A stretch of 64,000 nucleotides of DNA from Syntrophaceae bacterium (GTDB lineage Bacteria; Desulfobacterota; BSN033; UBA1163). The stretch covers positions 5,826 to 69,825 of the forward strand of contig JACAEX010000020.1 in NCBI GenBank assembly GCA_013388635.1, written 5' to 3'. The notes under the pieces are model-generated. The model saw only the letters and a program-made list of their open reading frames with translations, was not told the origin of the DNA and did not search any database. Below, in pieces: positions 4,519 to 43,835 of the stretch. A program made the position numbers and the translations under genes. Each line of letters starts with the position of its first letter. Within the stretch, counting starts at the first letter, position 1.

Positions 4519-6327
4519 ATGTCACAACTCGCAAAATTATCGTCCTTTATAATGGATAAAAAAACAGGGGTTTACGTCTTAGAGAAGAAAGCCTATCAGG
4601 GTTTCGGTTATTTGGACGGGTCGGAGGATAAGCTCTTAAAAATTATTACAGGCGCAAGAGATTGTAGCTGTAATTCTAGAGAATTAGAATCCTCCATTAG
4701 CGACTGGCCAACAAAATACCATCTTTCCAACCTAAGGACCAACATTCTTAGGGCTCTTAACTTTTTGAATAAAGATTCCAAAATTCTTGAAGTGGGTGCA
4801 GGATGCGGTGCTCTAACAAGATATCTCGGCGAAAATTTTAATCACGTTGATGCTATCGAAGGTAGTCTGAAGAGGTCGTGCATCGTAAAAGAAAGATGTA
4901 AAGATCTTAACAATGTGAGAGTCTACTGCTCTCCTTTCCAAGAGGTAGTTTTTGACAGTGAATATGATGTAGTAACACTTATTGGAGCTCTCGAATATGC
5001 TCCGATATTTTACTCTGCTGCTGGCCATCGAAGTGAAGAAGCTTGCTTAGAGATGTTAAAACACGCAATAAGCGCCTTAAAAGACGGCGGATGTTTAATT
5101 ATAGCTATGGAAAATAGACTTGGTCTGAAATACTGGTGCGGATGTACTGAAGATCATACGGGTAAATTGTTCGACGGCATCCATGGTTACCCTAATATAA
5201 ATAGTGTGATTACTTTTAGTAAAAAGGAAATGATAAGATTGTTGCAGAAAGCACAATTAAACTATTTTGAATTTTATTATCCATTTCCGGATTATAAATT
5301 GACAAACACGATACTTCGCGAAGTTTCTAATCAAGCCTCGTATTACCTCCATAACTGGATAACCGTACCCTTTGAAGATTATTCTTCCAGCAGGCGGTAT
5401 CTTGTCAATGAGGCTCTAGCTATTAAATCGCTTGTTGAGGCTGAAATGATTTATGACCTCTCAAATTCCTTCTTGATAGTGGCGTACAAGGAGAAAGTTC
5501 CTAGCGGCAGAAACAAGGAACCGGATTGGATAGCCAAACGATTCTCCACAAATAGGGTTCTTCCTTTCAGGGCTGTAACCACACTCGAAACAGAAGCGAA
5601 TACAAATTCACTTGTTGTCCGCAAACGGAAATTGTTTAATGTGACAGAACCTCAAACATTTATAAGGATTAATCCCTGCGATTCAAAATGGATTCCAGGT
5701 AACTTGCTTCAATTTTCTTTATATGAATCAATCTATAAAGATAATGGGTTTAAAAGTCTTATGAATATTTTGGCAAAATACCAAAATGGACTAATGAAGA
5801 ATTGTTCAATAGGAGAAATGGACGATGAGGGATACCCTTTGGCAAAAATGGATGCAATTGATTTTGTTCCATCTAATATTATACTAAGTGACAACGAAAT
5901 GTTAAGTATGGATCATGAATGGATTTACACGCAACCCATAAGTACAGATTATATTTTTTTTAGAGCATTATTTATCTTTGTCATCGAGCAGTACCCATAC
6001 ATTTTGGATAACTTATCTGTTCCAGCTAATAATTTTGATAAATTTATAGTATCAATTATGAAAGAATTCTACCCTCAATATGACATGAAAAGACATGAGA
6101 GAAACAGAAAAAGAGAAGAGGAATTTGAGAGTGTGGTTTCTGGAAATGATATTAAGTTGCCGGAGGCTGAACATTTCAGACTTGCAAAAGATCCGATATC
6201 ACAAAAGGACGAACAGATAAATTCAATATTAAATTCATGGAGTTGGAGAATAACTTCCCCTTTGAGATGGTTGTATAGGAATTATTCCAGGGCGAAAAGC
6301 TTACTTGAACGGCTGAGATGTAATTAA
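4519..6327 (+). CDS. Large class I SAM-dependent methyltransferase (N-terminal MTase domain plus about 350-aa uncharacterised C-terminal region); candidate glycan chain-terminating modifier
   Basis: SAM motif I ILEVGAGCGALTRYL, motif post-I/II DVVTLIGALEY; size and context next to Wzm/Wzt. Confidence 0.6.
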   Translation: MSQLAKLSSFIMDKKTGVYVLEKKAYQGFGYLDGSEDKLLKIITGARDCSCNSRELESSISDWPTKYHLSNLRTNILRALNFLNKDSKILEVGAGCGALTRYLGENFNHVDAIEGSLKRSCIVKERCKDLNNVRVYCSPFQEVVFDSEYDVVTLIGALEYAPIFYSAAGHRSEEACLEMLKHAISALKDGGCLIIAMENRLGLKYWCGCTEDHTGKLFDGIHGYPNINSVITFSKKEMIRLLQKAQLNYFEFYYPFPDYKLTNTILREVSNQASYYLHNWITVPFEDYSSSRRYLVNEALAIKSLVEAEMIYDLSNSFLIVAYKEKVPSGRNKEPDWIAKRFSTNRVLPFRAVTTLETEANTNSLVVRKRKLFNVTEPQTFIRINPCDSKWIPGNLLQFSLYESIYKDNGFKSLMNILAKYQNGLMKNCSIGEMDDEGYPLAKMDAIDFVPSNIILSDNEMLSMDHEWIYTQPISTDYIFFRALFIFVIEQYPYILDNLSVPANNFDKFIVSIMKEFYPQYDMKRHERNRKREEEFESVVSGNDIKLPEAEHFRLAKDPISQKDEQINSILNSWSWRITSPLRWLYRNYSRAKSLLERLRCN

Positions 6328-11353: not shown

Positions 11354-11361
11354 GTGTAAAA

Positions 11362-12561
11362 ATGAAGGTTTTGATGGTCATTTCACAATTTTACCCGATT
11401 ATTGGCGGAGCTGAGAAGCAATCTTTACTCTTGGCACAGAAATTGGTCGAAAAGGGTATGGGTGTTCAAATAGTGACAGGTTGGTGGAAATGGGGGACTC
11501 CGCAAAGAGAAATTATTAATGGTATACCAGTAATTAGAAATTTTACATTCTGGGGTATGTTTGGCATAAAAGGCCTCCGTACCCTGGGGGCACTTATTTA
11601 TATGGGGAGTCTTGGGGTCTATCTTCTCCTAAATGGGCGAACCTACGATCTTATCCACGTGCATCAAGTTTTATTTCCTGCTTTTGTTTCTGTTTTTATA
11701 GGAAAAAAGTTCCTCAGGAAAAATGTTATAGTGAAAAATTCAGTTTCCGGCCTAATAAGCGACATAAAACAGTTAAAAAAGTTTCCTCTCGGTAGCTTAC
11801 AGTTGAAATATCTAATTAAGAAAATAGATTGTATAGTAACCGTAAGTGCTGATGCAGAGAATGAATTTAAAAGCATCGGTTATCCTGAATCGAGAATAAT
11901 GTATATTCCTAACGGTGTCTCGGTCCCGTTGAAAGGAAAAAATAATTATGACAGAGTCGTTCAAGTCCTCACTGTAGGCAGGTTGGATAACCAAAAAGGG
12001 ATTGATGTTTTGCTTAAAGCTTGGGCAAGCGTTGTGGATGTTGAGAAGGGCCTGAAGCTTCTTGTGTTGGGCAGTGGGCCTCAGAAAGCAGAGCTTAAAA
12101 AGCTTACCGCATCTTTAGGTGTTAGCCATTCAGTAGAATTTAAGGGTTTGGTTCATAATACTGAGGATTACTTTAGTAGTGCTGATATTTTCGTTCTCCC
12201 TTCAAGGGCGGAAGGTTTATCAAATGCACTTCTGGAAGCAATGAGCTATGGAACACCTTGTGTTGCTACAAAAGTTGGGGGAACTACTGAAGTTTTTGGT
12301 TTGAATCCTGAGACTAATATTAAAAGAGGAGGATATGCGGTCGCTAGGAATGGGGTGGCCGTTAATCCAGATGATGTCAAAGGTCTTTCAGAAGGAATTC
12401 TTTATCTAGTTGGGAATAAAGGCGCAAGAGAAGAGATCGGAAAAAGAGCCCGCATATTTATAAAGGAAAATTATTCAATAGATTTGATAGCTGAAAAATA
12501 TATTGAGCTCTATCAAAATATACTGAAGTCGAAACCTTTTTGGATTATGAAACGCCATTGA
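11362..12561 (+). CDS. Glycosyltransferase family 4 (tandem paralog 1)
   Basis: VGRLDNQKGIDVLL, VLPSRAEGLSNALLEAMSYGTPCVATKVGG; about 60 percent identical to next gene. Confidence 0.75.
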   Translation: MKVLMVISQFYPIIGGAEKQSLLLAQKLVEKGMGVQIVTGWWKWGTPQREIINGIPVIRNFTFWGMFGIKGLRTLGALIYMGSLGVYLLLNGRTYDLIHVHQVLFPAFVSVFIGKKFLRKNVIVKNSVSGLISDIKQLKKFPLGSLQLKYLIKKIDCIVTVSADAENEFKSIGYPESRIMYIPNGVSVPLKGKNNYDRVVQVLTVGRLDNQKGIDVLLKAWASVVDVEKGLKLLVLGSGPQKAELKKLTASLGVSHSVEFKGLVHNTEDYFSSADIFVLPSRAEGLSNALLEAMSYGTPCVATKVGGTTEVFGLNPETNIKRGGYAVARNGVAVNPDDVKGLSEGILYLVGNKGAREEIGKRARIFIKENYSIDLIAEKYIELYQNILKSKPFWIMKRH

Positions 12562-12610
12562 GGTGTAGGTTTCGCTCTATTTATATTTGTGGTTAAAGTT
12601 CTCCTTAGAA

Positions 12611-13795
12611 ATGAAAGTTCTCATGGTTATATCACAATTTTATCCAATGATTGGAGGGGTGGAGAAGCAAGCTCAACTTCTCGCAGAAAAATTCATTGAG
12701 AAAGGCCTCGAAGTCCAAATAGTGACAGGTTGGTGGAAATGGAAAACCACAAGAAAAGAAATTGTTAACGGAGTTCCTGTTTTTAGGAATTTTTCATTTT
12801 GGGGTGCGGAGGGAAAGAAGGTTCATCGAACTATTGGTTTAATCGGAGGCTTAGTTTACACGATCAGTCTCAGCGTTTACATTTTTATTCATAGACGAGA
12901 GTTTGACATCCTCCAAGTCCATCAAGCCCTGTATCCTGCTTTTATTTCGGTTCTTGTTGGAAAGAGACTTCTAAAGAAACCGGTCTTGGTTAAGACTGCA
13001 AGCTCTGGGTTAACAAGTGACATAAAACGGCTGAGAAAATACCCGGTCGGTGGTTTTCAACTTAGATACTTACTTAAGAACCAGGATGGATTGGTCGCAA
13101 ACAGTCGGGCAGGAGCAGAGGAGTTTAAAGAGATCGGATATCCGGAATCGCAGATCGCATATATCCCAAATGGGATTAAAATTCCCCACAAAGGTAAGAA
13201 TGCTTATGAAGGGATAGAAAAGGTTCTGACGATCGCACGATTCAGTTACGAAAAGGGAGTCGATGTCTTGCTCAAAGCATGGGCTCAGGTGATTCAAGAA
13301 GAGAAAAGGCTGAGGCTCTTAATCGTTGGAAGTGGTTCTCAGGAAAGTGAGCTCAAAAGCCTTTCGCACTCCTTGGGGATCGATGAATGCGTTGATTTCG
13401 TCGGTCTGGTTCCAGATGCATCACCGTATATAGAGCGGGCCGACCTCTTTGTATTACCCTCCAGGTCTGAAGGGATGTCCAATGCTTTACTGGAAGCCAT
13501 GAGTTACGGATTACCATGTGTTGCAACCCGAGTTGGCGGAAACCGTGAGTTACTTGGAGGAGAGCATGAAGAGATCTTAAGAGGTGATTATGCAACTGGT
13601 GAGAACGGCATTCTTGTCAATCCGGACGATCCGAAAGGGCTCTGCGGGGCCATTCTATATTTCGTGCGGAACCAAAGCCTCAGAGAAAGGATGGGAGTGA
13701 AGGGGAGGGAATTTGTTATGAAGAATTACTCTATTGACCAGGTGGCCGAAAGATATATTGCGCTATATCGATCTATCCTGGAGAAAAGATCGTGA
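12611..13795 (+). CDS. Glycosyltransferase family 4 (tandem paralog 2)
   Basis: Same N-terminus MKVLMVISQFYPMIGGVEKQ as previous gene; start moved to ATG 12611. Confidence 0.75.
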   Translation: MKVLMVISQFYPMIGGVEKQAQLLAEKFIEKGLEVQIVTGWWKWKTTRKEIVNGVPVFRNFSFWGAEGKKVHRTIGLIGGLVYTISLSVYIFIHRREFDILQVHQALYPAFISVLVGKRLLKKPVLVKTASSGLTSDIKRLRKYPVGGFQLRYLLKNQDGLVANSRAGAEEFKEIGYPESQIAYIPNGIKIPHKGKNAYEGIEKVLTIARFSYEKGVDVLLKAWAQVIQEEKRLRLLIVGSGSQESELKSLSHSLGIDECVDFVGLVPDASPYIERADLFVLPSRSEGMSNALLEAMSYGLPCVATRVGGNRELLGGEHEEILRGDYATGENGILVNPDDPKGLCGAILYFVRNQSLRERMGVKGREFVMKNYSIDQVAERYIALYRSILEKRS

Positions 13796-13796
13796 G

Positions 13797-15779
13797 ATGT
13801 GCGGGATTTGTGGGGCGATAGATCTTAGAAGAAAGGGAGTAAGGGCACAGGTCATAGATCGGATGTGTGAGGTACTGGCGCATCGAGGCCCGGATGATGA
13901 GGGGATGGTCTTTTTTCGGGATGGAAAGGCTTTGGAAGTGAAAGAATCCACTCTAATAGTTTTAGCCCAAGGTGGTTTTGAGGTAGGGTTGGGCCATCGA
14001 CGCCTCGCTATCATCGATCTCTCAGAGGCGGCCCATCAACCGATGGCCAATGAGGATGGCCAGATCTGGATCGTCTATAATGGGGAAATCTATAATTTTC
14101 AGGACCTTAGAACCTCATTAGAAAAAAAGGGGCACATCTTCAAATCGAGATCGGACACGGAAGTAATCCTCCATGCCTATGAGGAGTGGGGAGTAGAATG
14201 TCTCAAAGAATTGAGGGGTATGTTTGCCTTTGCCATCTGGGATTCCAACCGAAAGCGGTTGCTCATGGCTCGCGACCGATTGGGGAAGAAGCCTTTGGTC
14301 TATTTTTACCAGGATGGTCGATTTGCCTTCGCTTCGGAGATAAAGGCGCTTCTTCAGATCTCGTGGGTCGAAAGAAAGGTGAATCCACTGGCCATCCACC
14401 ATTATTTAACTTACCAGTATGTCCCATCTCCAGAAAGCATATTCGAAGGAATAAAGAAACTTCCTCCTGCCCATTATCTTCTTTACGATTCCAATGGCAA
14501 CCTTAAGATAGAGAGTTATTGGAGGCTAAATTACAATTACCAGGAAAAAAGAAAGGACGATGTTGAAACGCTCTGTGGGATTATACGGGAAAAGCTTGAG
14601 GAATCGGTGAAGCTCCGACTCATCAGTGATGTACCCCTGGGTGCTTTTCTGAGCGGAGGGATCGATTCGAGCATTGTCGTTGGACTCATGGCCGAAAATG
14701 GAGGACGGCGTGTTAAAACCTTCTCGATTGGTTTTGAGGAGCAGGAATTTAACGAACTCGAATATGCAAGAATCGTCTCTATCCATTTCGGAACTGACCA
14801 TCATGAATTTGTGGTGAAGCCAGATGCAATCGAGATCTTACCCAAGCTGGTCTGGTACTACAATGAACCCTTTGGGGATTCATCAGCCATCCCCACGTAT
14901 TATATGGCTCAGATGACTAAGGATTTCGTAAAGGTTGTTTTGACAGGGGATGCTGGCGATGAGAATTTTGCAGGCTACCCCCGGTATCTTCGGAGCAAAT
15001 ATGTTTGGTGGTTCAGCAGGCTTCCCGATAGCTTACGAAAAGGGTTTTTGCCTTCCTCTCTGAAAATTCTTGCCCAGTTGCCTTATAAACGAAAGACTTT
15101 AAACCGCCTGACTGATTTCATGGAAACGTTGTCGTCTCACCAGGGGCGAAATTATGCCGAGCAGATAAAGATTTTCAACGAAAAGGAGAGAGACGACGTT
15201 TATTCAGAAGAGTTTTCACGACAGGTTGGGAAAATCGACCCCTTTGACTATCTGATCAAGAAATATGACGAAAGGGATACTGATGACCTGTTAGAAAAAC
15301 TCCTTTATCTTGATATGACAACTTATCTTCCCGAGGACCTTCTCGTCAAGGTGGATATTGCGACCATGGCGAATTCCCTGGAGGCGAGGGTCCCCTTTCT
15401 TGACCATCAATTCATGGAGCTGGTTGCCGGAATACCTTCGCATCTGAAGCTGAAAGGGTCCGTTACCAAGTTCATCCTAAAGGAGAGTTTTTCCAACTTC
15501 CTTCCTCGTTCAATTTTGAAGAGAAAGAAGATGGGATTCGGCGTTCCAATCTCAAGATGGTTCAGAAAGGAGTTAAAAGACTACGTGTATCAAATTCTAA
15601 TGGAAAAAAAGGCGTTGAACCGGGGGTACTTTAAAAGAGAGGGCATTGCACGCCTGCTCGAAGAACACGAATCGCTCCGCTACGATCACTCGGCAAAGAT
15701 CTGGGCCCTGCTCGTATTGGAAATATGGTTCAGGGTCTTTATCGATAGGGAAGGAGATTTTGCCCTTTATGGCGGATGA
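13797..15779 (+). CDS. asnB: Asparagine synthetase family (glutamine-hydrolysing) amidotransferase, AsnB/WbpS-like
   Basis: N-terminal MCGICG nucleophile, PP-loop SGGIDSS; start placed at ATG 13797. Confidence 0.8.
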   Translation: MCGICGAIDLRRKGVRAQVIDRMCEVLAHRGPDDEGMVFFRDGKALEVKESTLIVLAQGGFEVGLGHRRLAIIDLSEAAHQPMANEDGQIWIVYNGEIYNFQDLRTSLEKKGHIFKSRSDTEVILHAYEEWGVECLKELRGMFAFAIWDSNRKRLLMARDRLGKKPLVYFYQDGRFAFASEIKALLQISWVERKVNPLAIHHYLTYQYVPSPESIFEGIKKLPPAHYLLYDSNGNLKIESYWRLNYNYQEKRKDDVETLCGIIREKLEESVKLRLISDVPLGAFLSGGIDSSIVVGLMAENGGRRVKTFSIGFEEQEFNELEYARIVSIHFGTDHHEFVVKPDAIEILPKLVWYYNEPFGDSSAIPTYYMAQMTKDFVKVVLTGDAGDENFAGYPRYLRSKYVWWFSRLPDSLRKGFLPSSLKILAQLPYKRKTLNRLTDFMETLSSHQGRNYAEQIKIFNEKERDDVYSEEFSRQVGKIDPFDYLIKKYDERDTDDLLEKLLYLDMTTYLPEDLLVKVDIATMANSLEARVPFLDHQFMELVAGIPSHLKLKGSVTKFILKESFSNFLPRSILKRKKMGFGVPISRWFRKELKDYVYQILMEKKALNRGYFKREGIARLLEEHESLRYDHSAKIWALLVLEIWFRVFIDREGDFALYGG

Positions 15780-17670
15780 AGGAAAAGGATCGGCCCGCCC
15801 CATCAATTTTGAATTCCAGATCAGGAGACGATTTCCCAGGGCCCTGACCGCCTGCCTTGTCCTCGCACTCGTTGTGAGCCTCCTCTATTTCAATTCCCTC
15901 GGAAACCAATTTACGAACTGGGATGACTCGATGATTTATGAGAATCCCCAGATCAGAAGTTTAAGCTGGGAGAACATATCGAAGATATTCAAATTCGATA
16001 AAGGGGGAACCTACCAACCCGTCCGGGTGTTGAGCTATGCAGTCGATTATCAGTTCTGGAAGCTTAACCCAACCGGTTACCACATCACGAACACCCTCCT
16101 TTATATGCTCACGTGCGTCATAATTTTTTTTACGATTTCACATCTTTCAGCCAGTCTTAGAGATCAAGCCCCACCCGAATCCCATGAAAGAGTTGGGCTC
16201 TTTGGATCCCTTCTCTTTGCAGTCCACCCGGTGCACGTGGAGGCAGTTACCTGGCTTGCTGCGCGAAAGGAGGTCTTACAGGGTTTCTTTTTCTTTCTTG
16301 CCTTTCATCTTTACTTGAAAGGGAGGAAGGAGGAAGGAGGAAAGAGATTTCTCTATCTTGGGCTGACCCTTTTTGTCTTTCTCCTTGCCACGCTTTCAAA
16401 ACCCTCTGCCATCGTATTTCCTGCAGTGATTCTTGTCTATGAGATCTCTGTCAGTAGAAAAAGATGGCTCGACTTCATAAAGAGGCACTGGGTCTTTATC
16501 GGCGTTTGCATCGGGCTTTCAATCTTTTTCAGTTTGGTCGTGTTGAAGGTGATGTTCGAAGCGGGCGGGATCAAACCCTATCGCGGAGGTACCTTTTTTA
16601 ATAACCTGGTGATCAGTTTTTATGCTTTTCTTTATAATATCAAGCTATTACTCTTTACAATAAACTATTCAGCGGCCTACACCATCCCTGTCACCAATCC
16701 CATTCTAAGCCTCCGGACCTTCGTCTTCATCGGGATTACGCTTATTATCTTTGGATTGAGCCTCTGGTCACTGAGGCGCATGAAAGTTATCTTCTTTTGC
16801 TTCTTTTTCTTTCTTATAACAATCTTCCCATACCTCAATCTCATTCCCATTAGCACGCTCCTCGCGGACCGGTACGTTTTTATTGCCTCTTTTTCGTACT
16901 GCTTTCTGTTAGGAATTGGCTTTGACAGATTTTATGGCTTGAGGAGTAAGAGATTTTCGGAGAACTTCTTCAAGCTTCTCTCCGTCGCCCTTTTTCTCTT
17001 TATGCTGGCCGGGTACTCTTTTATGACGATCCGGCAGAACAGAATCTGGGAAAATAGTTATACCCTCTGGGCAGATGCTGTGGCAAAGGCTCCGGAAAGC
17101 AACAGTGCCAATGCACTCATGGGCGTGGTCTGTATGGAATTGGGAATGGATAATGAGGCAGCCAAATACCTTGAGAAGGCTGTCCAGATCCTTCCCTATG
17201 ATTACCTGTCAAGAAATAATCTTGGAATTGTCTACGGCAGGCTGGGCGAACGTGATAAGGCAATAAAGGAGTTCATGACAGCGATCTGGCTGAAACCGGA
17301 GGATAATACGATCAAGGTTAACCTCTCAGCCTTCTACCAGAGCCAGAAGGAGTATCAGAAGGCAGAGGAGGTCTTAAAGGATCTCCTGTCCAGAGATGCT
17401 AAGAATGCCTACCTTCACTATCGATTGGGCCTGCTCTACAAAGAGATGGGCCAGTATGATTCGGCCCTTTTAGAATTGACGAAATCCATGGAGCTGGCTC
17501 CCCACATCATCAACCCTTATGAAGAGCTCGGCAATATCTACGCGAGCCGACTGAGAGATGCGGAGAAAGCGAGATCATACTACACCAAGGGAATTGAAGC
17601 AGTCCCTGAGGCCAGGTCAAGAGTGGAACAGTTGAGATGGATGGTTCAGGACCTGGAAGCATACAGATAG
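15769..17670 (+). CDS. Multi-TM PMT/TMTC/ArnT-like membrane glycosyltransferase fused to C-terminal TPR repeats
   Basis: About 11 hydrophobic segments followed by TPR-like repeats (AKYLEKAVQILPYD..., YLHYRLGLLYKEMGQYDSA); ATG 15769 overlaps asnB stop. Confidence 0.6.
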   Translation: MADEGKGSARPINFEFQIRRRFPRALTACLVLALVVSLLYFNSLGNQFTNWDDSMIYENPQIRSLSWENISKIFKFDKGGTYQPVRVLSYAVDYQFWKLNPTGYHITNTLLYMLTCVIIFFTISHLSASLRDQAPPESHERVGLFGSLLFAVHPVHVEAVTWLAARKEVLQGFFFFLAFHLYLKGRKEEGGKRFLYLGLTLFVFLLATLSKPSAIVFPAVILVYEISVSRKRWLDFIKRHWVFIGVCIGLSIFFSLVVLKVMFEAGGIKPYRGGTFFNNLVISFYAFLYNIKLLLFTINYSAAYTIPVTNPILSLRTFVFIGITLIIFGLSLWSLRRMKVIFFCFFFFLITIFPYLNLIPISTLLADRYVFIASFSYCFLLGIGFDRFYGLRSKRFSENFFKLLSVALFLFMLAGYSFMTIRQNRIWENSYTLWADAVAKAPESNSANALMGVVCMELGMDNEAAKYLEKAVQILPYDYLSRNNLGIVYGRLGERDKAIKEFMTAIWLKPEDNTIKVNLSAFYQSQKEYQKAEEVLKDLLSRDAKNAYLHYRLGLLYKEMGQYDSALLELTKSMELAPHIINPYEELGNIYASRLRDAEKARSYYTKGIEAVPEARSRVEQLRWMVQDLEAYR

Positions 17671-17994
17671 AAAGCGTCTGTCGGTTGATGATTGAGGTAA
17701 TGAGGCCCGTATCGTTAGTCAAAGGTTACGTTTATCGTCTTTTAATGCTGGATCGACATATGAGACGTTACCCTTACCGATCTGCGAAACAGGCCTCTTA
17801 ACCGTAACCCAAATTATGTTAGGAGTGCCATAAATAAAAAGTCATTGGTTTAAAGGTTAGGGTAACGATGCCGGTTTCGTGGAAGGGTTATGTGGTTGGT
17901 CTTTAAATCTTTTAGCCGTTACCCTTTGACTCTTTACCAAACTGGCTTCCTAACCCTAACCCAAAGACCATTTTCTTAAAACGAGTTATCGCCT

Positions 17995-18753
17995 ATGCTG
18001 ACTATTGCTTCGATCATTTTTGGGGCTATTGTTGGAAGTTTCTTGAATGTCTGCATCTGGAGGCTTCCTAAGGGAGAGTCCATCGTCAGCCCGGGTTCCC
18101 ATTGTCCCCACTGCAGTCATCCGATCAGATTTTACGACAATATCCCCTTGATCAGTTACCTCCTATTGGGTGGAAGATGTCGTCACTGTAAAGGATCGAT
18201 CTCTGCCCAATACCCTCTGGTCGAAGGGGTGACAGCGCTTAGCTCCCTTCTGCTCTTCTTAAAGCACGGTTTCTCGTTCAGTTATCTCTACTATTTTGCC
18301 TTCCTAACAGGCCTGATCACAGTCACGGTGATCGATCTTTACCATCAGATCATCCCTGACGTGATCAGCATTCCTGGAATCGTCATTGGATTGTTAGGCG
18401 CATTGATCATTCCCCATATCACTTTTCTCCGTTCCCTCTTGGGAGTCCTCCTGGGTGGTGGAAGCCTTTTTCTGGTTGCTACGGCCTATCAGTGGCTCTT
18501 TAAGAGAGAAGGGATGGGTGGTGGAGATGTGAAACTCCTGGCCATGATCGGCGCCTTTTTAGGATGGGATGCAGTGATCCTGACGATCCTCCTAAGCTCT
18601 CTCATCGGGTCGATCACGGGAATCTTGGTTATTATCCTGAAGGGAAAGGATTTCAAATATGCCATCCCCTTTGGCCCGTTTCTTTCACTCGGTGCGGCGA
18701 TCTCACTCTATTCCGGGGAAGACATAGTCAGATGGTATCTTGGTGTAAGATAA
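17995..18753 (+). CDS. pilD: Prepilin peptidase / N-methyltransferase (A24 family) PilD
   Basis: Zn-binding CPHC...CRHC tetracysteine, catalytic-Asp-containing TM core (GGGDVKLLAMIGAFLGW). Confidence 0.85.
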   Translation: MLTIASIIFGAIVGSFLNVCIWRLPKGESIVSPGSHCPHCSHPIRFYDNIPLISYLLLGGRCRHCKGSISAQYPLVEGVTALSSLLLFLKHGFSFSYLYYFAFLTGLITVTVIDLYHQIIPDVISIPGIVIGLLGALIIPHITFLRSLLGVLLGGGSLFLVATAYQWLFKREGMGGGDVKLLAMIGAFLGWDAVILTILLSSLIGSITGILVIILKGKDFKYAIPFGPFLSLGAAISLYSGEDIVRWYLGVR

Positions 18754-18949: not shown

Positions 18950-20680
18950 ATGAAGAACAGTTGGTTATTTAAAAAACTGCATTTAAGCCTCAGGGTGGAA
19001 GTTATTATCAATATTTCTCTGCTCATGCTGGCTGCGATCCTCCTGATCGGCTTTGTGATTTCCAAGATCAACGAGAACAATATGATCGAGGAGAGGACAA
19101 GAAATGGAGAAGGGGTGGTTCAGGACTTTCAAGCGATCATCGACTACATGGTCAGGGATAAGAAGGAGATTTCATTGAACCACCCGTCTGTGAAGAAAGA
19201 GGTCCAGGATTTTGCCCGAATTTATACAAAGGCAAGAAGGTTTCACGATCTCATAATCACGGATCGAGAGATGAGGGTGGTTGCAAGCAAAAAGGGGGAT
19301 GGGGTTGATCAACAATACTTCGATGATCTTCTTAAAAAATCGATTCAGTCAGGGGAGTTGAATACCAAAATCGAAAAAACAGGAGGGCTCTTATCCACCC
19401 ATTATAAGAAATTGATCCTCTCTGCTCCGTTATGGGTTCACGAAAAGATCGAAGGCGGCATTTTAGTTAAGATCTCTTTGACAGATGTAGCCATGCATCT
19501 GCTCACCTGGCAGAAAACGATTCTGATTTCATTGATTTTGGATGCGATTGTCCTGATCGCCTTCGGAAGCTTCCTCCTCTCTCGCATCCTGGTCAAGCCC
19601 ATGAAAGATCTCGTCCGATTGACACAGAAGATCAGTGAGGGCGATTTCAGTCAGACCATAGAGGTTACGTCGAAGAATGAGATCGGACAGCTGATCTCCT
19701 CCTTCAACCGCATGATCGAGAGATTGAGAGAGAAGCAGGAGAGCATCGAAAGTTATTTGAAATCCCTCGAGCTGGCCAACAAGAAGCTGAAGGAAGCCCA
19801 GGAAGAGCTGATCCGCACTGAAAAGCTGGCTTCCATCGGAAGGTTTGCAGCAGGGGTGGCTCACGAAGTCGGAAATCCGCTCGGAGCGATTCTCGGATAC
19901 ACCAGCATCTTAGAAAAGGAAGGCGTCAAACCTGAAGAGGCGAAAGACTACTTAAGACGAATCGAAAAGGAGATCGAGCGGATCAACCGGATTGTTCGAG
20001 AGCTTCTGGATTTCTCAAGACCCTCGAAGTCTGAGATCCAGGAGATCGAAGTCAATAAGGTGATCGAAAATACACTTTCATTACTCTCATACCAGAAAAA
20101 TTTCAAAAATATCAAGACTGATTTAGACCTTCAGACCGATCTACCCCGGATCAAAGGGGATGAATCTCAACTCTCCCAGGTCTTCATCAACATCATTTTG
20201 AATGCTGTGGATGCAATGCCGGAGGGTGGGGCGCTAAGAATCAGGACCGAGGACATCGTCGTCGAAGATCTGCTCGAAGAGGAGCTCCAGCAGTTTTACC
20301 CCAGAAGGCGTAAAGACGATCCACTCGACTCCGACTATTCCCGGCTGAGAAAGCCCGACCCTCTTTCCGCTATCCTTTCAAAATTTTCAAAGGGTGAACG
20401 ACTGGTCAAGATAAGAATTTCTGACACGGGGACAGGGATCCCCCAGGAAAATCTGGAGAGGATTTTTGATCCCTTCTTTACCACCAAAGATCCTGACAAG
20501 GGCACGGGCCTTGGCCTGTCGATCTGCCTGAGGATTGTCGAATCGATGGGCGGAAGAATAAGGGTTGAAAGCGAGGTCGGAAAAGGCTCGACGTTCGAGA
20601 TTTATCTGCCCACATTTGATGCGGGAAGTAGCCTAACAGTTAAGGTGACGACGCCCGTTTCGTCAGGCGTCAACCGGTAA
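18950..20680 (+). CDS. Membrane sensor histidine kinase (2TM, HAMP, HisKA, HATPase), PilS-like
   Basis: HAMP after TM2, H-box [13 protein letters not shown]-boxes DTGTGI/GTGLGLS. Confidence 0.75.
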
Positions 20681-20765
20681 CGTAAAAAGAGTCAAAAAAG
20701 ACAGACGTAGCCTTTTATTAACGATACGGGCCTCGTAACCGTAACCTAAGACCGAGGAGGGTAAA

Positions 20766-22145
20766 ATGATTCCCGGACGAGTTCTCATTATCGACGATGA
20801 AGAAAGCTTCAGGCATATGCTGTCTGTCATCTTACAGAAGGAAAATTATGAAGTCGAAATCGCATCGAATGGAGAGGAAGGGTTAAGAAAGCTGACCTCT
20901 TCCCATTTCGACCAGGTCCTTTGTGATATCCGGATGCCCCAGATGGACGGGATGGAATTTTTGGAGGAGGCGAAGAAGGTTGCAGCCGGAGTGACGATCA
21001 TCATGATGTCCGCTTATGGAACGATCGATACCGCGATCGAGGCGATGAAACTTGGCGCGTACGATTATGTTTCAAAACCCTTTAAGCCCGATGAGATCAT
21101 CCTGACCCTGAAAAAGGCAGAGGAGAGGGAGCGGCTGAGGAAGGAAAATGAGCTTTTGAGAAAGGAGATCCAAAAAGAGTATAGTTTTAACAACATCGTG
21201 AGCAAGAATCAGAAGATGTTAGACATCTTTGAGGTGATCAAAAAGGTCGCTCCCTACAAGTCGACCATCCTGATCACCGGAGAGAGTGGAACCGGAAAAG
21301 AGTTGATTGCGAGGGCATTGCATTATCACAGTGATCGGTCGGGCCGTCCATTCATCCCTGTCAACTGTGGCGCCATTCCCGAGAATTTGCTGGAAAGTGA
21401 GCTCTTCGGTCATGCAAAAGGAGCGTTTACAGATGCGGTCCGGATGAAGAAGGGGCTCTTTGAAGAGGCGGATGGCGGAACCCTCTTTTTAGATGAGATC
21501 GGGGAACTCCCTGCTCCGCTTCAGGTGAAACTCCTCAGGGTGCTTCAGGATGGTGAGATCCGGAGGGTAGGGGAGTCGAAGTCGATCCAGATTGACGTGA
21601 GGATCATTGCTGCCACGGTGAAGGATCTTGCGAGAGAGGTGAGGGAAAACCGCTTCAGAGAGGACCTATTCTATCGTTTGAACGTCCTGCCGATCCATCT
21701 TCCACCCCTTCGGGAGAGGAGAGAGGATATCCCCTTACTCGTCAATCATTTTGTTAATAAATATAGCCAGGCGATGAATAAACCCGTAAGGGGGATTAGT
21801 CCAAAGGCGCTTGAGGTACTGGTCAACTACAAATGGTCGGGCAATGTGAGGGAGCTCGAAAATACGATCGAAAGAGCGATCGTCCTCACAGATAAGGAGA
21901 ATATTGAGCTGGAGAACTTACCCATCGAACTCCAGAACTTCCGGGAGGAGACTCCAGCGGCGCCTTTGGCCGAAGAGGAATATTCGATCAAGAAGGCGTC
22001 AAAGGTTTTAGAGATCGGTTTGATTAAGAAGGCACTGAAAAAGACCAAGGGCAACCATACCCATGCTGCAAGATTACTCGAGATAAGTCATCGGGCGCTC
22101 CTTTACAAGATCAGGGAATACGGGATTGTAGAAAACGAGAGATGA
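20766..22145 (+). CDS. Sigma-54-dependent response regulator (REC-AAA+-Fis HTH), PilR/NtrC-like
   Basis: D-containing REC, Walker A GESGTGKEL, GAFTDA loop, C-terminal HTH ...HAARLLEISHRALLYKIREYGI. Confidence 0.85.
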   Translation: MIPGRVLIIDDEESFRHMLSVILQKENYEVEIASNGEEGLRKLTSSHFDQVLCDIRMPQMDGMEFLEEAKKVAAGVTIIMMSAYGTIDTAIEAMKLGAYDYVSKPFKPDEIILTLKKAEERERLRKENELLRKEIQKEYSFNNIVSKNQKMLDIFEVIKKVAPYKSTILITGESGTGKELIARALHYHSDRSGRPFIPVNCGAIPENLLESELFGHAKGAFTDAVRMKKGLFEEADGGTLFLDEIGELPAPLQVKLLRVLQDGEIRRVGESKSIQIDVRIIAATVKDLAREVRENRFREDLFYRLNVLPIHLPPLRERREDIPLLVNHFVNKYSQAMNKPVRGISPKALEVLVNYKWSGNVRELENTIERAIVLTDKENIELENLPIELQNFREETPAAPLAEEEYSIKKASKVLEIGLIKKALKKTKGNHTHAARLLEISHRALLYKIREYGIVENER

Positions 22146-27404: not shown

Positions 27405-27773
27405 ATGAGAAAATTTCTCTTTTTGAATATGGTGTTTCCCACGGTTCTTTTGCTGACGGTCTTCTGTCCTTTGGTTTTGGCTGAAGAGGTGAGTGTAGTC
27501 AGGCTCCAGGGTGCTATAATGGAACTCGATTTGAAGAAAAACATCCTCATAGTCAATGAGAGGGTTTTTGTATGCGATCAGAAGACGACATTTCACAACG
27601 AGAAAGGTGTCCCTGTCGGCATTGAAAAACTGAGAGTCAAATCCTGGGTATATATTGAAGGTGAACGCGATGAAGCTCGGAAGAGATTGGTGGCAAAGAA
27701 GATCTATTTGCTCCCCAGGTATATCGGTCGAAAGGAGAGGCGTCTCTATCCATTCATCCCACGAGAAGATTAG
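27405..27773 (+). CDS. Small secreted protein (signal peptide), paralog of 31191-31508; PilY1-associated
   Basis: N-terminal signal MRKFLFLNMVFPTVLLLTVFCPLVLA; alignable to the ORF upstream of pilY1 paralog 2. Confidence 0.4.
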   Translation: MRKFLFLNMVFPTVLLLTVFCPLVLAEEVSVVRLQGAIMELDLKKNILIVNERVFVCDQKTTFHNEKGVPVGIEKLRVKSWVYIEGERDEARKRLVAKKIYLLPRYIGRKERRLYPFIPRED

Positions 27774-27804
27774 ATGGTGCGGTATAAGCCGGGCTCTCAA
27801 AGGG

Positions 27805-28722
27805 GTGATCTTCTGCACTATTCTTGCATCCTCTTTTTTAACTCTCTCCTGTGAGAATCAGAGGGAGGTACCTCAAGTCAAAGAGAAGACCCGAAGCAAT
27901 GTCCCTCCGGTCATCACGTCTGTCGACATTATGCCAAAAAACCCCAGCCGAGAGAGTAACTTGGATCTCATCGTACGAAGTGAGGATCCTGATGGCGACA
28001 TGGTGACCTATCGTTACCAGTGGATTAGAAATGGTGAAGAGATTTCTGGTGAGAATAAGAATCTTTTAAAGAGCGGAAATTTCAATAAAGGAGATGTCAT
28101 CCAGGTGAGGGTGGTCCCTTCAGATGATAAGGCAGAGGGAAGGGCCTTTCTATCCCCTCCGGTAAAGATTCTCAATTCTCCACCGGTTGTCCAGGAGGTC
28201 CGGATTGAGCCGAGGATTGCCTACGCACAGGATCGTCTAAGGGCCGTTGTGAAAGGTCATGATGTGGATGAAGACCCCATTCACTACACCTATCAATGGG
28301 AAAAGAATGGAGTGGTTCTGGCTGAAGAGAGGACAGAGGCGCTTGAGAAGGGCCGATTTAAGAGGGGAGACTCCATTGTCGTCACAGTGACACCCGAGGA
28401 TGGAGAAGGTAGAGGTAATCCGAAAAAGTCAGAAGCCATCACCATATTGAACAGTCCACCGGTCATCCTTTCATCCCCTCCGACCTCGGTCGAGGGGAAC
28501 GAGTATCTCTACCAGGTGAAGGCAGAGGACCCGGATGGAGATCCCACCTCTTTCAGTCTGAGGTCTGGTCCGAAAGGGATGGAGATCGACAAGGAGAAGG
28601 GGCTGGTTCGATGGACGATTCAGTGGAGAGACCGGGGCACTCATCCAGTAGAGATTGAGGTCTCTGATAAGGACGGGGCGAAGTGCTTCCAGCGATATGT
28701 CCTGAATGTTGAAATCCGATGA
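27805..28722 (+). CDS. Lipoprotein with tandem about 90-aa Ig/cadherin-like repeats; start uncertain (frame open from 27655)
   Basis: Lipobox FLTLSC; two clear internal repeats (SPPV...YxYQWxxNG...GDxIxVxVxPxD) plus a divergent third domain. Confidence 0.45.
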   Translation: MIFCTILASSFLTLSCENQREVPQVKEKTRSNVPPVITSVDIMPKNPSRESNLDLIVRSEDPDGDMVTYRYQWIRNGEEISGENKNLLKSGNFNKGDVIQVRVVPSDDKAEGRAFLSPPVKILNSPPVVQEVRIEPRIAYAQDRLRAVVKGHDVDEDPIHYTYQWEKNGVVLAEERTEALEKGRFKRGDSIVVTVTPEDGEGRGNPKKSEAITILNSPPVILSSPPTSVEGNEYLYQVKAEDPDGDPTSFSLRSGPKGMEIDKEKGLVRWTIQWRDRGTHPVEIEVSDKDGAKCFQRYVLNVEIR

Positions 28723-28775
28723 ATAAGGTTTAGTGTCTGTCATCTTAAGTCCGGTGTCGGAATTGAATTTCCATA

Positions 28776-29687: not shown

Positions 29688-30506
29688 ATGCAGATTATTA
29701 AGAAGAAAAACAGAGGGGTCACCCTGATTGAACTGATGATTGCCCTGGTGATGAGCAGCGTCCTCATCGCCGCTCTCTATGAAGTATTCATTCGTCACCA
29801 AAAGACCTATGTCCTTCAGGAACAGATCGTCGACACACAGCAGAGTGTGCGGATCGCCTTGAATCGCATGGTCAGTGAGATCAGAATGGCAGGGTTTGGG
29901 GGAGTGGAAAACGTCCTGAGTTTGGCCGGAGGGGTAAATGGCTTCACCCAGGTGATCACCCCGGGCCCGAAGAGAATCACAATCGTCGGAGGATTCAAGC
30001 AGATCCGGCGAGATAATGGAGAGCCGATTCTGGTCTCTTCGGTTTCAGGAAATCAGATTACGCTCAATTATGCCACAAACGAGTTTGATAGATTGGCACA
30101 CCGATTTATTTCGATCGGTGGCCTTGAAAGCAGTACAGTGCTGAAAAGGGATAGAAGGATTCTTACACTCAGCAACCCTCTCAAGTGGAATCACCCTGCT
30201 GGGACACCAGTATTTAAGATCCAGGCCATCACCTACACCACGGGCCTCAGCGGTCTTAGGATCATCCTTCAAAGGGATGAGAATACGGGAGGTGGCCCTC
30301 AGCCTGTGGCCGAGAATATAGAAGAGATTCAATTCGAATATTTCGATGCCAATGGAAACACGACCGCAGATCCTCCGAAGATTCGGATGGTTCGGGTGAC
30401 AGCTACTGCAAGAACCGATCGGCCTGATCCTTATCTCAAGATCGGGGATGGCTATCGGAGAAGGCAGATCGCGTCTCATATCTACATCAGAAATATGGGA
30501 TTATAG
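29688..30506 (+). CDS. pilW: Type IV minor pilin, PilW-like (cassette 2)
   Basis: MQIIKKKNRG / VTLIELMIALVMSSVLIAALYEVF; ATG 29688. Confidence 0.65.
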   Translation: MQIIKKKNRGVTLIELMIALVMSSVLIAALYEVFIRHQKTYVLQEQIVDTQQSVRIALNRMVSEIRMAGFGGVENVLSLAGGVNGFTQVITPGPKRITIVGGFKQIRRDNGEPILVSSVSGNQITLNYATNEFDRLAHRFISIGGLESSTVLKRDRRILTLSNPLKWNHPAGTPVFKIQAITYTTGLSGLRIILQRDENTGGGPQPVAENIEEIQFEYFDANGNTTADPPKIRMVRVTATARTDRPDPYLKIGDGYRRRQIASHIYIRNMGL

Positions 30507-30712
30507 GTCATGGTTACGAGACCCGTTTCATAACTTCTGATGTGGAGCATCGGAGATGAGGTGATGAGGAGAGGAATCTATTTCTCCCTATCCCCTCACC
30601 CCCTTATCTCCTTATTGATTATTGATTTTTTGCCGATACGGGCATCGTTACCCTGACCGGACGACGAGACCCTTATTTTCTGAGCAATTGAAAGATGGCA
30701 GGTTTCTGTTAT

Positions 30713-31159
30713 ATGGAAAGAAATATTTTAAAGAACAGAAAGGGGGTAGCGTTGATCATTGCCCTTCTGTTGCTACTTGCCCTGACGTTGATCGGAATCA
30801 GCTCGATCAATACGACGACGATTGAAACGGGTATCTCTGGAAACGATCGGGAGAAGGTCGATGCCTTTTATACGGCTGAGGCCGGGGTCCAGGTGGGAAT
30901 TCATCAAATTCCGGTTACATCCCCGATCCCAACGACCAAACTGAAGGAAAATTCCTACTATTGGAGCGGAACGGCAGATGACAGAGAAAACCCCAAGGCC
31001 TTTAAGTCCTTCGGAATTCACCAGATGCCCGGATTTGATTCCTCGTGGGCGTTTCGACGATATCAGATTAATGTGACAGGAGAATCCTTTAGATCGACAA
31101 GAGAGATAGAGGTTCAGGTGAGTTACGGCCCCTTTCGGGCGGATACGGATTACAACTGA
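30713..31159 (+). CDS. pilX: PilX-like minor pilin (cassette 2)
   Basis: MERNILKNRKGVALIIALLLLLALTLIGISSINTT PilX_N pattern; ATG 30713. Confidence 0.6.
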   Translation: MERNILKNRKGVALIIALLLLLALTLIGISSINTTTIETGISGNDREKVDAFYTAEAGVQVGIHQIPVTSPIPTTKLKENSYYWSGTADDRENPKAFKSFGIHQMPGFDSSWAFRRYQINVTGESFRSTREIEVQVSYGPFRADTDYN

Positions 31160-34298: not shown

Positions 34299-34397
34299 CG
34301 AACCATCCATTCTTTTTGTTCATCGTCCATTGTCTATGGTGCGGAGCAGGCCTCGTAACCGAAAAACTATTTTCTTCCTTCCGGGATGGCCAATCAA

Positions 34398-40068: not shown

Positions 40069-41441
40069 GACCTTCGATTCTTATTGTAGATGATGATGAG
40101 GTCCTGCGAGAGACCCTTTTTGATGTCTTTCGGAAGAAGGGTTACGAGGTTTTTTCTGCGGGAACGGGAGACGAAACCCTCACAGTCATAAGAAGGTATC
40201 TTGTCGATCTAATTCTTCTGGATATGCGACTCCCGGATGTGGACGGATTGGATATCTTGAAGAAGATTAAGGAGTTGGATACCGAGATTTTGGTCATTAT
40301 GATGACCGCCTACTCCGATGTCCAGAGCGCGGTGAAGGCGATGAAGTCAGGAGCTTACGACTACATCAACAAGCCCTTCGAATTAGAGGAATTGCAGCTG
40401 CTGGTTGAAAAGGGTCTGGAGACGAAGAGCCTGATCAACGAGGTGCGGAGACTCCATCGGCAACATCGGGTGGAGCACAGGGACAGCCATATTTACGGGG
40501 TGAGCCCGCAGATTCAATACGTGAGAGAAATGATCGAAATGATCAGCAAAACCAATAAGACCTCTGTCCTGATTCAGGGAGAGAGCGGAACGGGCAAAGA
40601 GCTGGCGGCCAATGCCATCCATTTCAGCAGCAAACGGAGCGCCAAACCTCTGATGAAGATTAATTGCAGCGCCATTCCCGATTCGTTATTGGAGTCGGAA
40701 CTCTTTGGATATGAGAAAGGTGCTTTTACCGACGCAAAGACCACGAAGAAGGGGCTTTTTGAACTGGCAGATGGAGGGACGGTCTTCCTGGACGAGATTG
40801 GAGAGATGAAGCCCTTTTTGCAGTCAAAGATACTAAGAGTTCTTGAAAATCAGACATTTATGAGAGTGGGCGGGGAAAGGGAGATCAAGGTCGATGTCCG
40901 AGCGATTGCAGCGACCAATCGGGACCTGGAGCAGATGGTCAGGGATGGGCTCTTTCGAAAGGATTTATACTACAGGTTAAAGGTGATGGTGGTTGAGATG
41001 CCACCTCTCCGTGAAAGAGTGGAGGATATTCTCCTTCTTGCGAAGTTGTTCGTCGAGGAGAACAATAAGGAATACAATAAGGATGTCAAAGGATTTTCCG
41101 AGGAGGCAAAGAAATTGCTGGTTCAGTACTCATGGCCAGGGAATGTAAGAGAATTGAAAAATGTGATTGAAAGAGCGATGATTTTGACTGATGGGGAGTA
41201 CATCACACCCAAACAGCTCCCGTTTGAATTAAAGCAAACCGAACCTAACTGTGCGGTGAAGGTGATTTCTGATCTCTCTGATCCAGTGCTTGGGATTTCC
41301 CTGGAGGATATGGAGAGAAGTCATATCTCAAATGTTCTCAAGAGGCTGGAATGGAATAAGTCGAAGGCATCGAAGGCCTTGGGGATTTCTCGAGCGACTT
41401 TGAGGGCAAAGATCAAAAGATACAGCCTTGATGCAATTTAG
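40065..41441 (+). CDS. Sigma-54-dependent response regulator (NtrC family)
   Basis: ATG 40065 overlaps kinase stop (ATGA); REC, GESGTGKEL, GAFTDA, C-terminal HTH. Confidence 0.85.
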   Translation: MRPSILIVDDDEVLRETLFDVFRKKGYEVFSAGTGDETLTVIRRYLVDLILLDMRLPDVDGLDILKKIKELDTEILVIMMTAYSDVQSAVKAMKSGAYDYINKPFELEELQLLVEKGLETKSLINEVRRLHRQHRVEHRDSHIYGVSPQIQYVREMIEMISKTNKTSVLIQGESGTGKELAANAIHFSSKRSAKPLMKINCSAIPDSLLESELFGYEKGAFTDAKTTKKGLFELADGGTVFLDEIGEMKPFLQSKILRVLENQTFMRVGGEREIKVDVRAIAATNRDLEQMVRDGLFRKDLYYRLKVMVVEMPPLRERVEDILLLAKLFVEENNKEYNKDVKGFSEEAKKLLVQYSWPGNVRELKNVIERAMILTDGEYITPKQLPFELKQTEPNCAVKVISDLSDPVLGISLEDMERSHISNVLKRLEWNKSKASKALGISRATLRAKIKRYSLDAI

Positions 41442-43193: not shown

Positions 43194-43835
43194 ATGGCAC
43201 TTAAGGCAGATGCCATCTTTAAGCTTTCAACACCGAAGAAGGTCCTCCTGCTGGTCGCCCTCTTAGGGATGATCGCAGGTCTCTACCTCCATTTCTCCTT
43301 CAGTGGTCGGCGGGAGGAGATCAAGCTCTTGAAGGCGGACCTCGATAAGTTGATCAAGGAGCTGAACGGGAACAAAACGATCACCCGGGATCTTCAAAAA
43401 TTCAAGGAACAGCTTGCGAAGATGGACGAGGAACTGGCAAGGGCGGTCACCCAGCTCCCCAATGAAAAAGAGATTCCGGAGATACTGAAAAACATTGCCA
43501 GCCTCGGGAAGGAGTCGAATCTTGAATTTACCCTCTTCAGGCCCAAGGCCGAAGTCCCCCAACAGTTCTATGCGAAGGTTCCGATCGAGCTCACGGCATT
43601 AGGAAGTTATCATAATACTGGCATCTTCTTCGACAGGGTGAGCAAGCTTCCAAGAATTATTAATGTGATCGACTTCAATATGACCAGAGTAAAAGATGCG
43701 AAGGCAAAGGCGGGCGGTGAGATCTTAGTAAGGACCTCGTGTCTGGTCAACACCTACCGTTTCATAGAGAAGAAGAGCGTGGAGAAAGAAAAGAAAATTG
43801 AGCAGAAGAAAGGCGAGGAGAAGAAGCATGAGTAA
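43194..43835 (+). CDS. pilO: PilO
   Basis: Single TM plus coiled coil plus conserved PilO core (LPRIINVIDFNM). Confidence 0.7.
   Translation: MALKADAIFKLSTPKKVLLLVALLGMIAGLYLHFSFSGRREEIKLLKADLDKLIKELNGNKTITRDLQKFKEQLAKMDEELARAVTQLPNEKEIPEILKNIASLGKESNLEFTLFRPKAEVPQQFYAKVPIELTALGSYHNTGIFFDRVSKLPRIINVIDFNMTRVKDAKAKAGGEILVRTSCLVNTYRFIEKKSVEKEKKIEQKKGEEKKHE

Follow-up and report, generated by a model that had tools for sequence, protein, structure and literature searches.

Palindromic repeats in a type IV pilus locus of a Syntrophaceae bacterium as probable gene-less copies of an element with a four-helix-bundle protein gene

The type IV pilus locus and its palindromic repeats

The DNA analysed here, called the window throughout, is a stretch of 64,000 nucleotides (nt) from a Syntrophaceae bacterium (assembly GCA_013388635.1, contig JACAEX010000020.1), and it harbours a cluster of type IV pilus (T4P) genes. 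Spacers of this cluster contain short dispersed repeats, which an initial annotation had described as a mosaic family of intergenic modules and had considered consistent with elements resembling repetitive extragenic palindromes (REP) or miniature inverted-repeat transposable elements (MITE), or to a family of conserved structured RNAs or regulator sites. The repeats make up palindromic elements with inverted arms of about 25 nt; these elements contain no open reading frame (ORF) and are probably gene-less copies of an element whose long form encodes a four-helix-bundle protein. The elements and putative fragments in the window are the following:

17684–17813, no strand assigned: element A, ORF-less palindrome with arms at 17690–17714 and 17785–17809 and a 70-nt inner part (nhmmer E-value 1e-17, profile positions 6–117)
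17847–17970, no strand assigned: element B, ORF-less palindrome with arms at 17855–17879 and 17937–17961 (nhmmer E-value 3e-24)
20634–20753, no strand assigned: element D, ORF-less palindrome between the pilS-like kinase gene and the pilR-like sigma-54 activator gene, with arms at 20638–20662 and 20722–20746 (nhmmer E-value 1.4e-20)
30500–30666, no strand assigned: element C, palindrome between a pilin-like gene (end 30506) and the PilX_N gene (start 30695), with arms at 30506–30530 and 30634–30658 and a 103-nt inner part (nhmmer E-value 5.5e-10)
53159–53270, minus strand: partial copy of element C, comprising a left-arm fragment and the purine-rich inner hairpin (about 75% identity over 115 nt; inverted repeat I2, local alignment)
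34342–34369, plus strand: candidate solo arm CGGAGCAGGCCTCGTAACCGAAAAACTA between convergent genes (75% match in repeat family D6; no partner arm found)

The genes of the locus are as follows:

13734–15779: asparagine synthase
15646–17670: TPR protein
17995–18753: prepilin peptidase PilD
18950–20680: HAMP/HisKA kinase, pilS-like
20766–22145: sigma-54 activator, pilR-like
30695–31159: PilX_N protein, with pilins also nearby

Detection of the arms in the window

All module strings quoted in the initial annotation are present in the window, with several coordinates shifted by one. The shared 16-mer lies at 20719–20734 and, as the reverse complement, at 17702–17717; the string GGCCTCGTAACCG is found at positions 20729 and 34349, and CGATACGGGC is found at positions 20722 and 30634, with its reverse complement at 17705. 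Taken one by one, the short modules are not significant, given the numbers of exact pairs that, by our own arithmetic, are expected by chance in a window of 64 kb (about one 16-mer, 60 13-mers and 240 12-mers). Alignment of the copies traced four of the five module sets back to one arm of about 25 nt, CGAWACNGGCMTCNTWACCNTAACC, and this arm, at no more than three mismatches, has eight matches in the window versus none in 100 dinucleotide shuffles. The eight matches form four inverted pairs, which are the arm pairs of elements A, B, D and C listed above and give imperfect palindromes of about 110–165 bp. A search with a profile hidden Markov model, constructed from 67 elements of other genomes only, with the window left out, revealed exactly four full-length elements in the window (E-values of 5.5e-10 to 3e-24), spanning profile positions of about 3–121. 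The repetition of the modules is therefore real and far beyond chance.

The same searches allow the earlier description to be corrected. The 324-bp region 17671–17994, singled out as rich in modules, consists of elements A and B in tandem. The partner arms at 20638–20662 and 30506–30530 had been overlooked, so that the modules were not recognised as halves of palindromes. The 12-mer TACCGATCTGCG, which had been counted as a module (17775 and 63935), is a chance match, since neither the arm pattern nor the profile finds anything at 63935. The restriction of the modules to intergenic DNA is not strict either, as the arm 20638–20662 falls within the last 15 or so codons of the kinase ORF 18950–20680.

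The inner parts of the window copies are 57–103 nt long and contain no ORF, which assigns these copies to the short form of the family described below. Elements A, B and D each fold as a single long hairpin on either strand, with z-scores of −2.2 to −5.3. Element A, which begins 14 nt past the stop of the TPR gene (17670), has z-scores of −2.2 and −3.2 on the two strands; element B, which ends 24 nt ahead of the pilD ATG (17995), forms a hairpin of −49 kcal/mol (z-score −5.3), and the alignment of its subfamily shows that it is shared by Syntrophaceae and deltaproteobacterial metagenome-assembled genomes (MAGs). Element D, the subfamily of which is shared with Thermodesulfobacteriota copies according to the corresponding alignment, ends 12 nt before the pilR ATG, directly ahead of a GAGGAGG Shine–Dalgarno sequence. 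The left part of this element encodes the last 15 or so codons of the kinase and its stop codon; the resulting tail is not present in three orthologues, which end 3–12 residues past the FEIYFP motif. Judging by this comparison, element D has replaced the C-terminus of the kinase and illustrates what an insertion can cost. The arms of the window copies contain 3–5 diverged positions each, and internal loops are visible in the predicted folds near the positions that are mismatched in the family.

The inner part of element C (30531–30633) contains a second hairpin, which is purine-rich and 7-nt-periodic (GGAGATGAGGTGATGAGGAGAGG ... CCCTATCCCCTCACCCCCTTATCTCC), and the whole looks like one hairpin element nested inside another. 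The partial copy of element C at 53159–53270 is situated in the spacer upstream of dnaJ and has no right arm. The mechanically assigned TTG start (53256) of the minus-strand ORF 52042–53256 is wrong; the product is DnaJ-like, and the ATG at 53148 is the most likely start, with 53149–53299 then intergenic. As for the candidate solo arm at 34342–34369, the profile hit at 34348–34370 is not significant (E-value 0.9), and this sequence is possibly a remnant or a chance match.

Distribution and anatomy of the short form

Given the information content of the arm pattern, about 41 bits, we estimated about 0.5 chance matches for the 596-Gb genome collection searched. The pattern matches at least 119 genome stretches, and their taxon labels cover more than 10 phyla; the labels among the matches listed include Thermodesulfobacteriota, Desulfobacteraceae, Syntrophaceae, Omnitrophota, Planctomycetota, Nitrospirota, candidate phyla radiation (CPR), Saccharibacteria, Woesebacteria, Margulisiibacteriota, Bacteroidota, Ignavibacteria, WOR-3, Cyanobacteria, Leptolyngbya, Gammaproteobacteria and Bdellovibrionales, and one match belongs to a single-cell genome. 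Searches of 2.9 million viral contigs gave no matches.

A set of 105 complete short elements, taken from the matches listed and from the window, has a common structure. The left arm is near GGTTACGGTTACGAAGCCCGTATCG and the right arm is near CGAAACGGGCATCGTAACCGTAACC; they enclose an inner part of 45–60 nt (mostly 48–55 nt), and both similarity and complementarity extend about 10–25 nt outward of the arms, the complementarity usually for about 10 nt. Positions 7–9, 11–14, 16–21 and 23–25 of the outer stem are paired in 74–100% of the elements, while positions 6, 10, 15 and 22 are usually mismatched, mostly as A.A or T.T. Conservation is higher in the arms than in the inner part, and, in the alignments, subfamilies of the short element follow host lineages.

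Only one of the 105 short elements is located inside an ORF; most lie between co-directional genes, with no preference for either orientation relative to the flanking genes (28 sense, 31 antisense), and their neighbours are ordinary, unrelated housekeeping genes. No transposase, integrase, reverse transcriptase or RAYT/HUH gene recurs within 1.5 kb of the 119 listed loci, and no template/variable repeat pair recurs near the elements. A description of the family was found neither in Rfam 15 nor in searchable full text, the coverage of which leaves out most subscription journals, and in the text searched, the arm strings occur only in unrelated eukaryotic primers. For the protein family, the only papers that came up deal with Coxiella and CPR bacteria.

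The long form and its four-helix-bundle gene

The family also has a long form of about 470–500 bp, in which the arms bracket an ORF of about 133 amino acids (aa) at the place where the short form has its loop. Among the matches listed, this arrangement was observed in five genome loci, and the five ORFs, which are 65–68% identical across phyla, match PF05635 at 64–70 bits (cut-off 33.8), as well as the TIGR02436 model ‘four helix bundle protein’. PF05635/TIGR02436 is the protein family found in the intervening sequences of 23S ribosomal RNA (rRNA) genes, and it is related to Avd of diversity-generating retroelements.

An alignment of the long-form ORFs was used to fetch 80 metagenomic loci encoding the same protein subfamily, 76 of which had enough flanking sequence. 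The left arm is present upstream of the gene in 50 of these 76 loci, the right arm is present downstream in 53, and 41 loci have both; by our own estimate, about 0.02 loci with both arms would be expected by chance. The inner length of the 34 cleanly delimited long elements is mostly 420–450 nt, and the PF05635 gene is the sole ORF between the arms in all five genome and all 34 metagenome elements. The protein subfamily is large, with 4421 clusters (90% identity, E-value of 1e-30 or lower), all named just ‘four helix bundle protein’; on sequenced plasmids, only distant homologues, no more than 33% identical, were found.

The two forms are connected by their inner sequence. About 30 nt inside each arm follow one consensus common to short and long forms, and in the short copies, the sequence AAAGACGAAnnACGTAACC, which precedes the right arm, corresponds to the final codons of the ORF (KFKDERRN..). 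Since the inner sequence, including these codons, is retained in the short copies, the short form can be regarded as an internal-deletion derivative of the long form; the short copies would have arisen by deletion of the ORF, in the way that MITEs arise from their parents. Among the genome loci, short forms outnumber long ones by about 105 to 5. A family with gene-bearing and gene-less forms exists in operon spacers of many phyla, and the suggestion of a MITE-like family in the initial annotation was right in substance: the elements are short and ORF-less, have inverted-repeat ends, lie between genes and have a longer, ORF-bearing relative with the same arms and adjoining inner sequence.

Other subfamilies and turnover at the T4P spacers

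Other subfamilies of PF05635 genes possess inverted flanks of their own, also composed of 6–7-nt repeats. These are AGAGCWW in locus L003 and a Nitrospirota homologue, GGAATRA in locus L001, ACAGGGA in locus L121 and CAGACWT in a further gene of the window:

53782–54045, minus strand: truncated PF05635 (four-helix-bundle, IVP) gene of a different subfamily (Pfam 97.5 bits, profile positions 2–81 of 106; TIGR02436 90.5 bits)

This gene encodes 87 aa and is accompanied by inverted arrays of CAGACWT-type heptamers at 53656–53695 and about 54050–54095; it is a decaying cassette of like architecture with different arms. The type of arm seems to follow the protein subfamily across phyla.

Further arms were noted. 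A solo CAGACWT-type arm is located at 28725–28764, in the spacer right after ORF 27655–28722 and within the T4P cluster, and it is 75% complementary to 53656–53695. In a Nitrospirota MAG (L079), an element with arms of the type described above (GGTTACG type) at 4825–4865 abuts AGAGCWW-type heptamer repeats, and 1 kb off, at 5760–6260, there is a four-helix-bundle gene with AGAGCWW flanks that shares 63% identity with the L003 type.

A comparison with relatives covered three syntenic loci, the PilD proteins of which are 77–80% identical to that of the window. The GGTTACG arm is absent from these loci at up to four mismatches, and the spacers between the TPR gene and pilD and between pilS and pilR differ in content. 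In L003–L005, the TPR–pilD spacer is occupied by a PF05635 gene of another subfamily. In L001 (9451–10001), the TPR gene is shortened and the TPR–pilD spacer contains a 47-codon fragment of the L003-type four-helix-bundle gene together with its arms; a different four-helix-bundle gene of a third type, with GGAATRA-type flanks, is situated between pilS and pilR of the same locus (12479–12916). Both spacers of L002 are short and empty, and the pilS–pilR spacer of L003 (12499–12589) contains a diverged, weakly related hairpin, GATGCTCGTATCG ... CGATACGAGCTTCG, with a profile E-value of 0.26. This distribution suggests that the two T4P spacers have been occupied repeatedly by four-helix-bundle cassettes in this lineage, and that the GGTTACG-arm elements probably have no function specific to type IV pili.

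Pairing, transcription signals and alternative explanations

One alternative explanation is that of a classical MITE, in which a transposase encoded elsewhere would mobilise the copies, the arms would be its terminal inverted repeats and the four-helix-bundle gene would be a passenger. The window copies, with terminal inverted repeats, small size and no ORF, fit this well, as do the preponderance of short over long forms in the genome loci, the better conservation of the arms compared with the inner part, the subfamilies that follow host lineages, and arms conserved by sequence without compensatory change, as expected for protein-bound terminal repeats. However, the parent with the same ends encodes a PF05635 protein only, in the five genome and 34 metagenome elements alike; no transposase family recurs within the 1.5 kb examined around the 119 listed loci, and no target-site duplication was seen. 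Arms shared across phyla would require an equally widespread cognate transposase, and none was seen, so we consider this explanation unlikely.

A second possibility is that the co-transcribed hairpins are a functional RNA of the host, with selection on a role in processing, stabilisation or termination through which the expression of pilD, pilR and pilX is tuned; the initial annotation had also proposed a conserved structured RNA. The stability of the hairpins on both strands is in accordance with this, and elements B, C and D end 12–36 nt before the next start codon. The pairing itself is clear: the 25 outer pairs are paired at 78.9%, and partners slid along the arm reach no more than 42%, so the register is right. 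The covariation score, however, is 0.051 versus 0.048 for the shuffled control, with 127 of 500 shuffles reaching the observed score; there is no excess of covariation, and the pairing therefore stems from two conserved sequences. RNAalifold, applied to a MAFFT alignment, recovered only invariant pairs, and the self-complementarity of the inner part is slightly above that of shuffles (median z-score −0.94). Position 22 of the 34 long elements, oriented by their ORF, is A.A in 22 cases, T.T in eight and paired in four; an inversion between the arms flips A.A to T.T, so the fixed mismatches can be explained as inherited left–right differences, without selection.

The search for known RNAs and transcription signals gave a similar picture. 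Rfam gave no match at the gathering score in the window and none at E-values up to 10 in 17600–18050, with only chance-level matches on a canonical element of locus L006. A U/T-rich tail follows the stem in element B (...AGACCAUUUUCUU), element C (...CCCUUAUUUUCUGA) and likewise some subfamilies, and T-tracts occur beside the arms at 38% and 34% versus 20% in the background, a weak enrichment, as the background includes coding DNA; a simple scan found no intrinsic terminators at the elements. Neither orientation is preferred (28 versus 31), and the orthologous T4P loci of relatives either have none of these elements or contain unrelated cassettes. A host RNA of this kind is, in our estimation, as improbable as a classical MITE.

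The other alternatives fare considerably worse. REP sequences or REPINs, species-specific palindromes mobilised by a RAYT (TnpA-REP) transposase, would agree with the intergenic location, and REPINs are inverted doublets of about 100 nt, resembling the arm pairs described here. Nevertheless, the 25-nt arm occurs in many phyla and not in one lineage (at least 119 stretches), no RAYT-like, Y1/HUH or other transposase recurs near the 119 listed loci, and the arm-linked element encodes a four-helix-bundle protein; a single arm has, by eye, an internal stem of 4 bp at best and forms no strong hairpin alone. No match to a known REP family was found, and the REP assignment of the initial annotation is very unlikely to hold.

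An equally poor prospect is that the repeats are sites for a T4P regulator (e.g., a PilR-like activator) or an unusual promoter before pilD, pilR and pilX, as the label of a regulator-site family had implied. The copies directly precede three T4P genes, toward which they are oriented, and the repeated GTWACC hexamers in the arm resemble protein-binding sites, but identical sequences stand beside unrelated housekeeping genes in other phyla and are missing from the syntenic loci of relatives, and one arm is coding. A scan revealed no sigma-70-like site in the 324-bp region or the elements. Inspection of the arm as a promoter showed neither the −24/−12 spacing or consensus of sigma-54 promoters nor the −35/−10 spacing of the extracytoplasmic function (ECF) type, and this candidate was rejected.

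The least probable explanation is a cluster of integron attC sites that has no integrase and in which the four-helix-bundle gene would be a cassette, since the elements, although similar to attC in size (imperfect palindromes of 60–140 nt), in conserved ends, variable centre and fixed unpaired positions, in location between ORFs and in occurrence in many phyla, have no RYYYAAC/GTTRRRY core sites at their ends (105 elements inspected), no integrase recurring nearby, and arms on both sides of the ORF and not after it, and their flanking genes are conserved syntenic operon genes and not cassettes.

Interpretation and comparison with known systems

With a probability of roughly 0.7, the repeats of the window derive from a palindromic selfish element whose long form carries a PF05635/TIGR02436 gene; they represent the arms of four copies that lack the ORF and of one or two fragments. 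The distribution suggests that the family colonises permissive intergenic spacers of ordinary operons, decays in them and is replaced, in the manner of a selfish element.

Several points weigh against this interpretation. No long-form copy with GGTTACG arms is present in the 64-kb window, and no pair of filled and empty sites was found in close relatives. Target-site duplications are not evident in subfamily alignments with flanks, where the ends are fuzzy, since complementarity continues outward; the mobility of the element is putative. The taxon labels are those of the MAG records, and some may be binning errors. The four-helix-bundle protein has been called functionally uncharacterised (PMC11270868), and binding of the arms or movement by this protein is hypothetical. 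A folded RNA or single-stranded DNA as the target of selection is hypothetical; inherited left–right differences can account for the conserved mismatches, which are no evidence of a selected fold. Finally, no conserved rRNA motif was found in about 200 loci searched with motifs of E. coli rRNA.

The closest known system is the rRNA intervening sequence with an S23p/IVP gene, and the elements described here are a variant of it located outside rRNA, with one arm sequence conserved across phyla and abundant gene-less derivatives. The intervening sequences, found in 23S and 16S rRNA genes of Leptospira, Coxiella and CPR bacteria, encode the same protein family (PF05635/TIGR02436) and, likewise, have the ORF in the loop of a long stem and terminal inverted repeats built of 6–7-nt repeats; ORF-less hairpins exist among them too. 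For Coxiella, an intervening sequence has been described with an S23p ORF, inverted repeats, tandem GACAGAT heptamers and excision by RNase III (PMC4990558), and the patchy distribution of intervening sequences has suggested horizontal spread (PMC4990558, PMC11270868). By contrast, the window copies have TPR, pilD, kinase, pilR and pilin genes as neighbours, Rfam detects no rRNA in the window, and the arms are one specific sequence kept across phyla. None of the roughly 200 loci is part of an rRNA gene, so the connection with genuine intervening sequences is one of architecture and protein family.

Similarities to other elements are more limited. Like ERIC/IRU, Correia (NEMIS) and REPIN elements, those described here are ORF-less imperfect palindromes of 100–150 bp, intergenic, co-transcribed, present in either orientation and more numerous than their longer parent. 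The former are limited to a genus or family and, where a mobiliser is known, are moved by DDE or Y1 transposases; the present family occurs across phyla, a four-helix-bundle protein is all that its long form encodes, and no target-site duplication was found. Avd has a distantly related four-helix-bundle fold, and the truncated gene of the window scores weakly on the bAvd and NF033474 models, far from their cut-offs (27.9 versus 40 and 23.3 versus 80, respectively); unlike Avd genes, the elements have no reverse transcriptase or template/variable repeat pair recurring nearby.

As to the mechanism, the arms may be conserved through recognition that would serve copying or maintenance; the most likely agent is the pentameric four-helix-bundle protein, supplied in trans, with a host factor as the alternative. 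A co-transcribed copy would fold into an imperfect hairpin of about 100 nt, a plausible substrate of RNase III by analogy with rRNA intervening sequences, for which excision by this enzyme is known, and cleavage could change the processing or stability of the flanking cistrons. A broader proposal, which we regard as tentative and rather doubtful, is that the arms and the gene of about 133 aa constitute a minimal self-propagating element without a transposase, recombinase or reverse transcriptase of its own, where an IVP/Avd-like pentamer would recognise cognate arms of 6–7-nt periodicity, one type per subfamily, and drive their copying or retention; the rRNA intervening sequences would then be the subset that landed in rRNA helices, and the window hairpins would be MITE-like derivatives.

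Proteins of the PF05635/TIGR02436 family are very common, and to date their annotations name no function; where rRNA intervening sequences come from has been an open question since about 1990 (PMC4990558). The gene-bearing and gene-less forms, the cross-phylum arms and the apparent arm type per subfamily offer a testable handle on binding, movement and RNase III cutting. The family also explains a class of unannotated intergenic palindromes of about 100 bp in uncultured bacteria, which may be misread as regulatory sites or small RNAs and can rewrite gene ends, as in the kinase tail described above.

Other repeats in the window

The window contains further repeats. A 200-nt direct repeat (11357–11556 and 12606–12805, 74% identical) belongs to adjacent ORFs of about 400 aa (11362–12561 and 12587–13795) and is likely a tandem gene duplication in a polysaccharide-type cluster of low G+C content (about 38–40%), which fills 1–13 kb. 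At least four paralogues of sigma-54 activator-type AAA+ proteins are encoded in the 64 kb (21265–21506, 40564–40805, 58777–58816 and 60764–61005; repeat families D1 and D3). Low-complexity repeats rich in Lys and Glu (GAGAAGAAG...) extend through ORFs 43798–44409 and 44406–47243 (945 aa) at 43767–45970. A 61-nt direct repeat, 74% identical, is present at 54440–54500 and 55109–55169, with a distance of 669 bp between the copies; both include a near-consensus sigma-70 −35/−10 pair, GTACAAAATTGTTGACA...TATAATAAT, and the two may be duplicated promoters sharing an upstream site.

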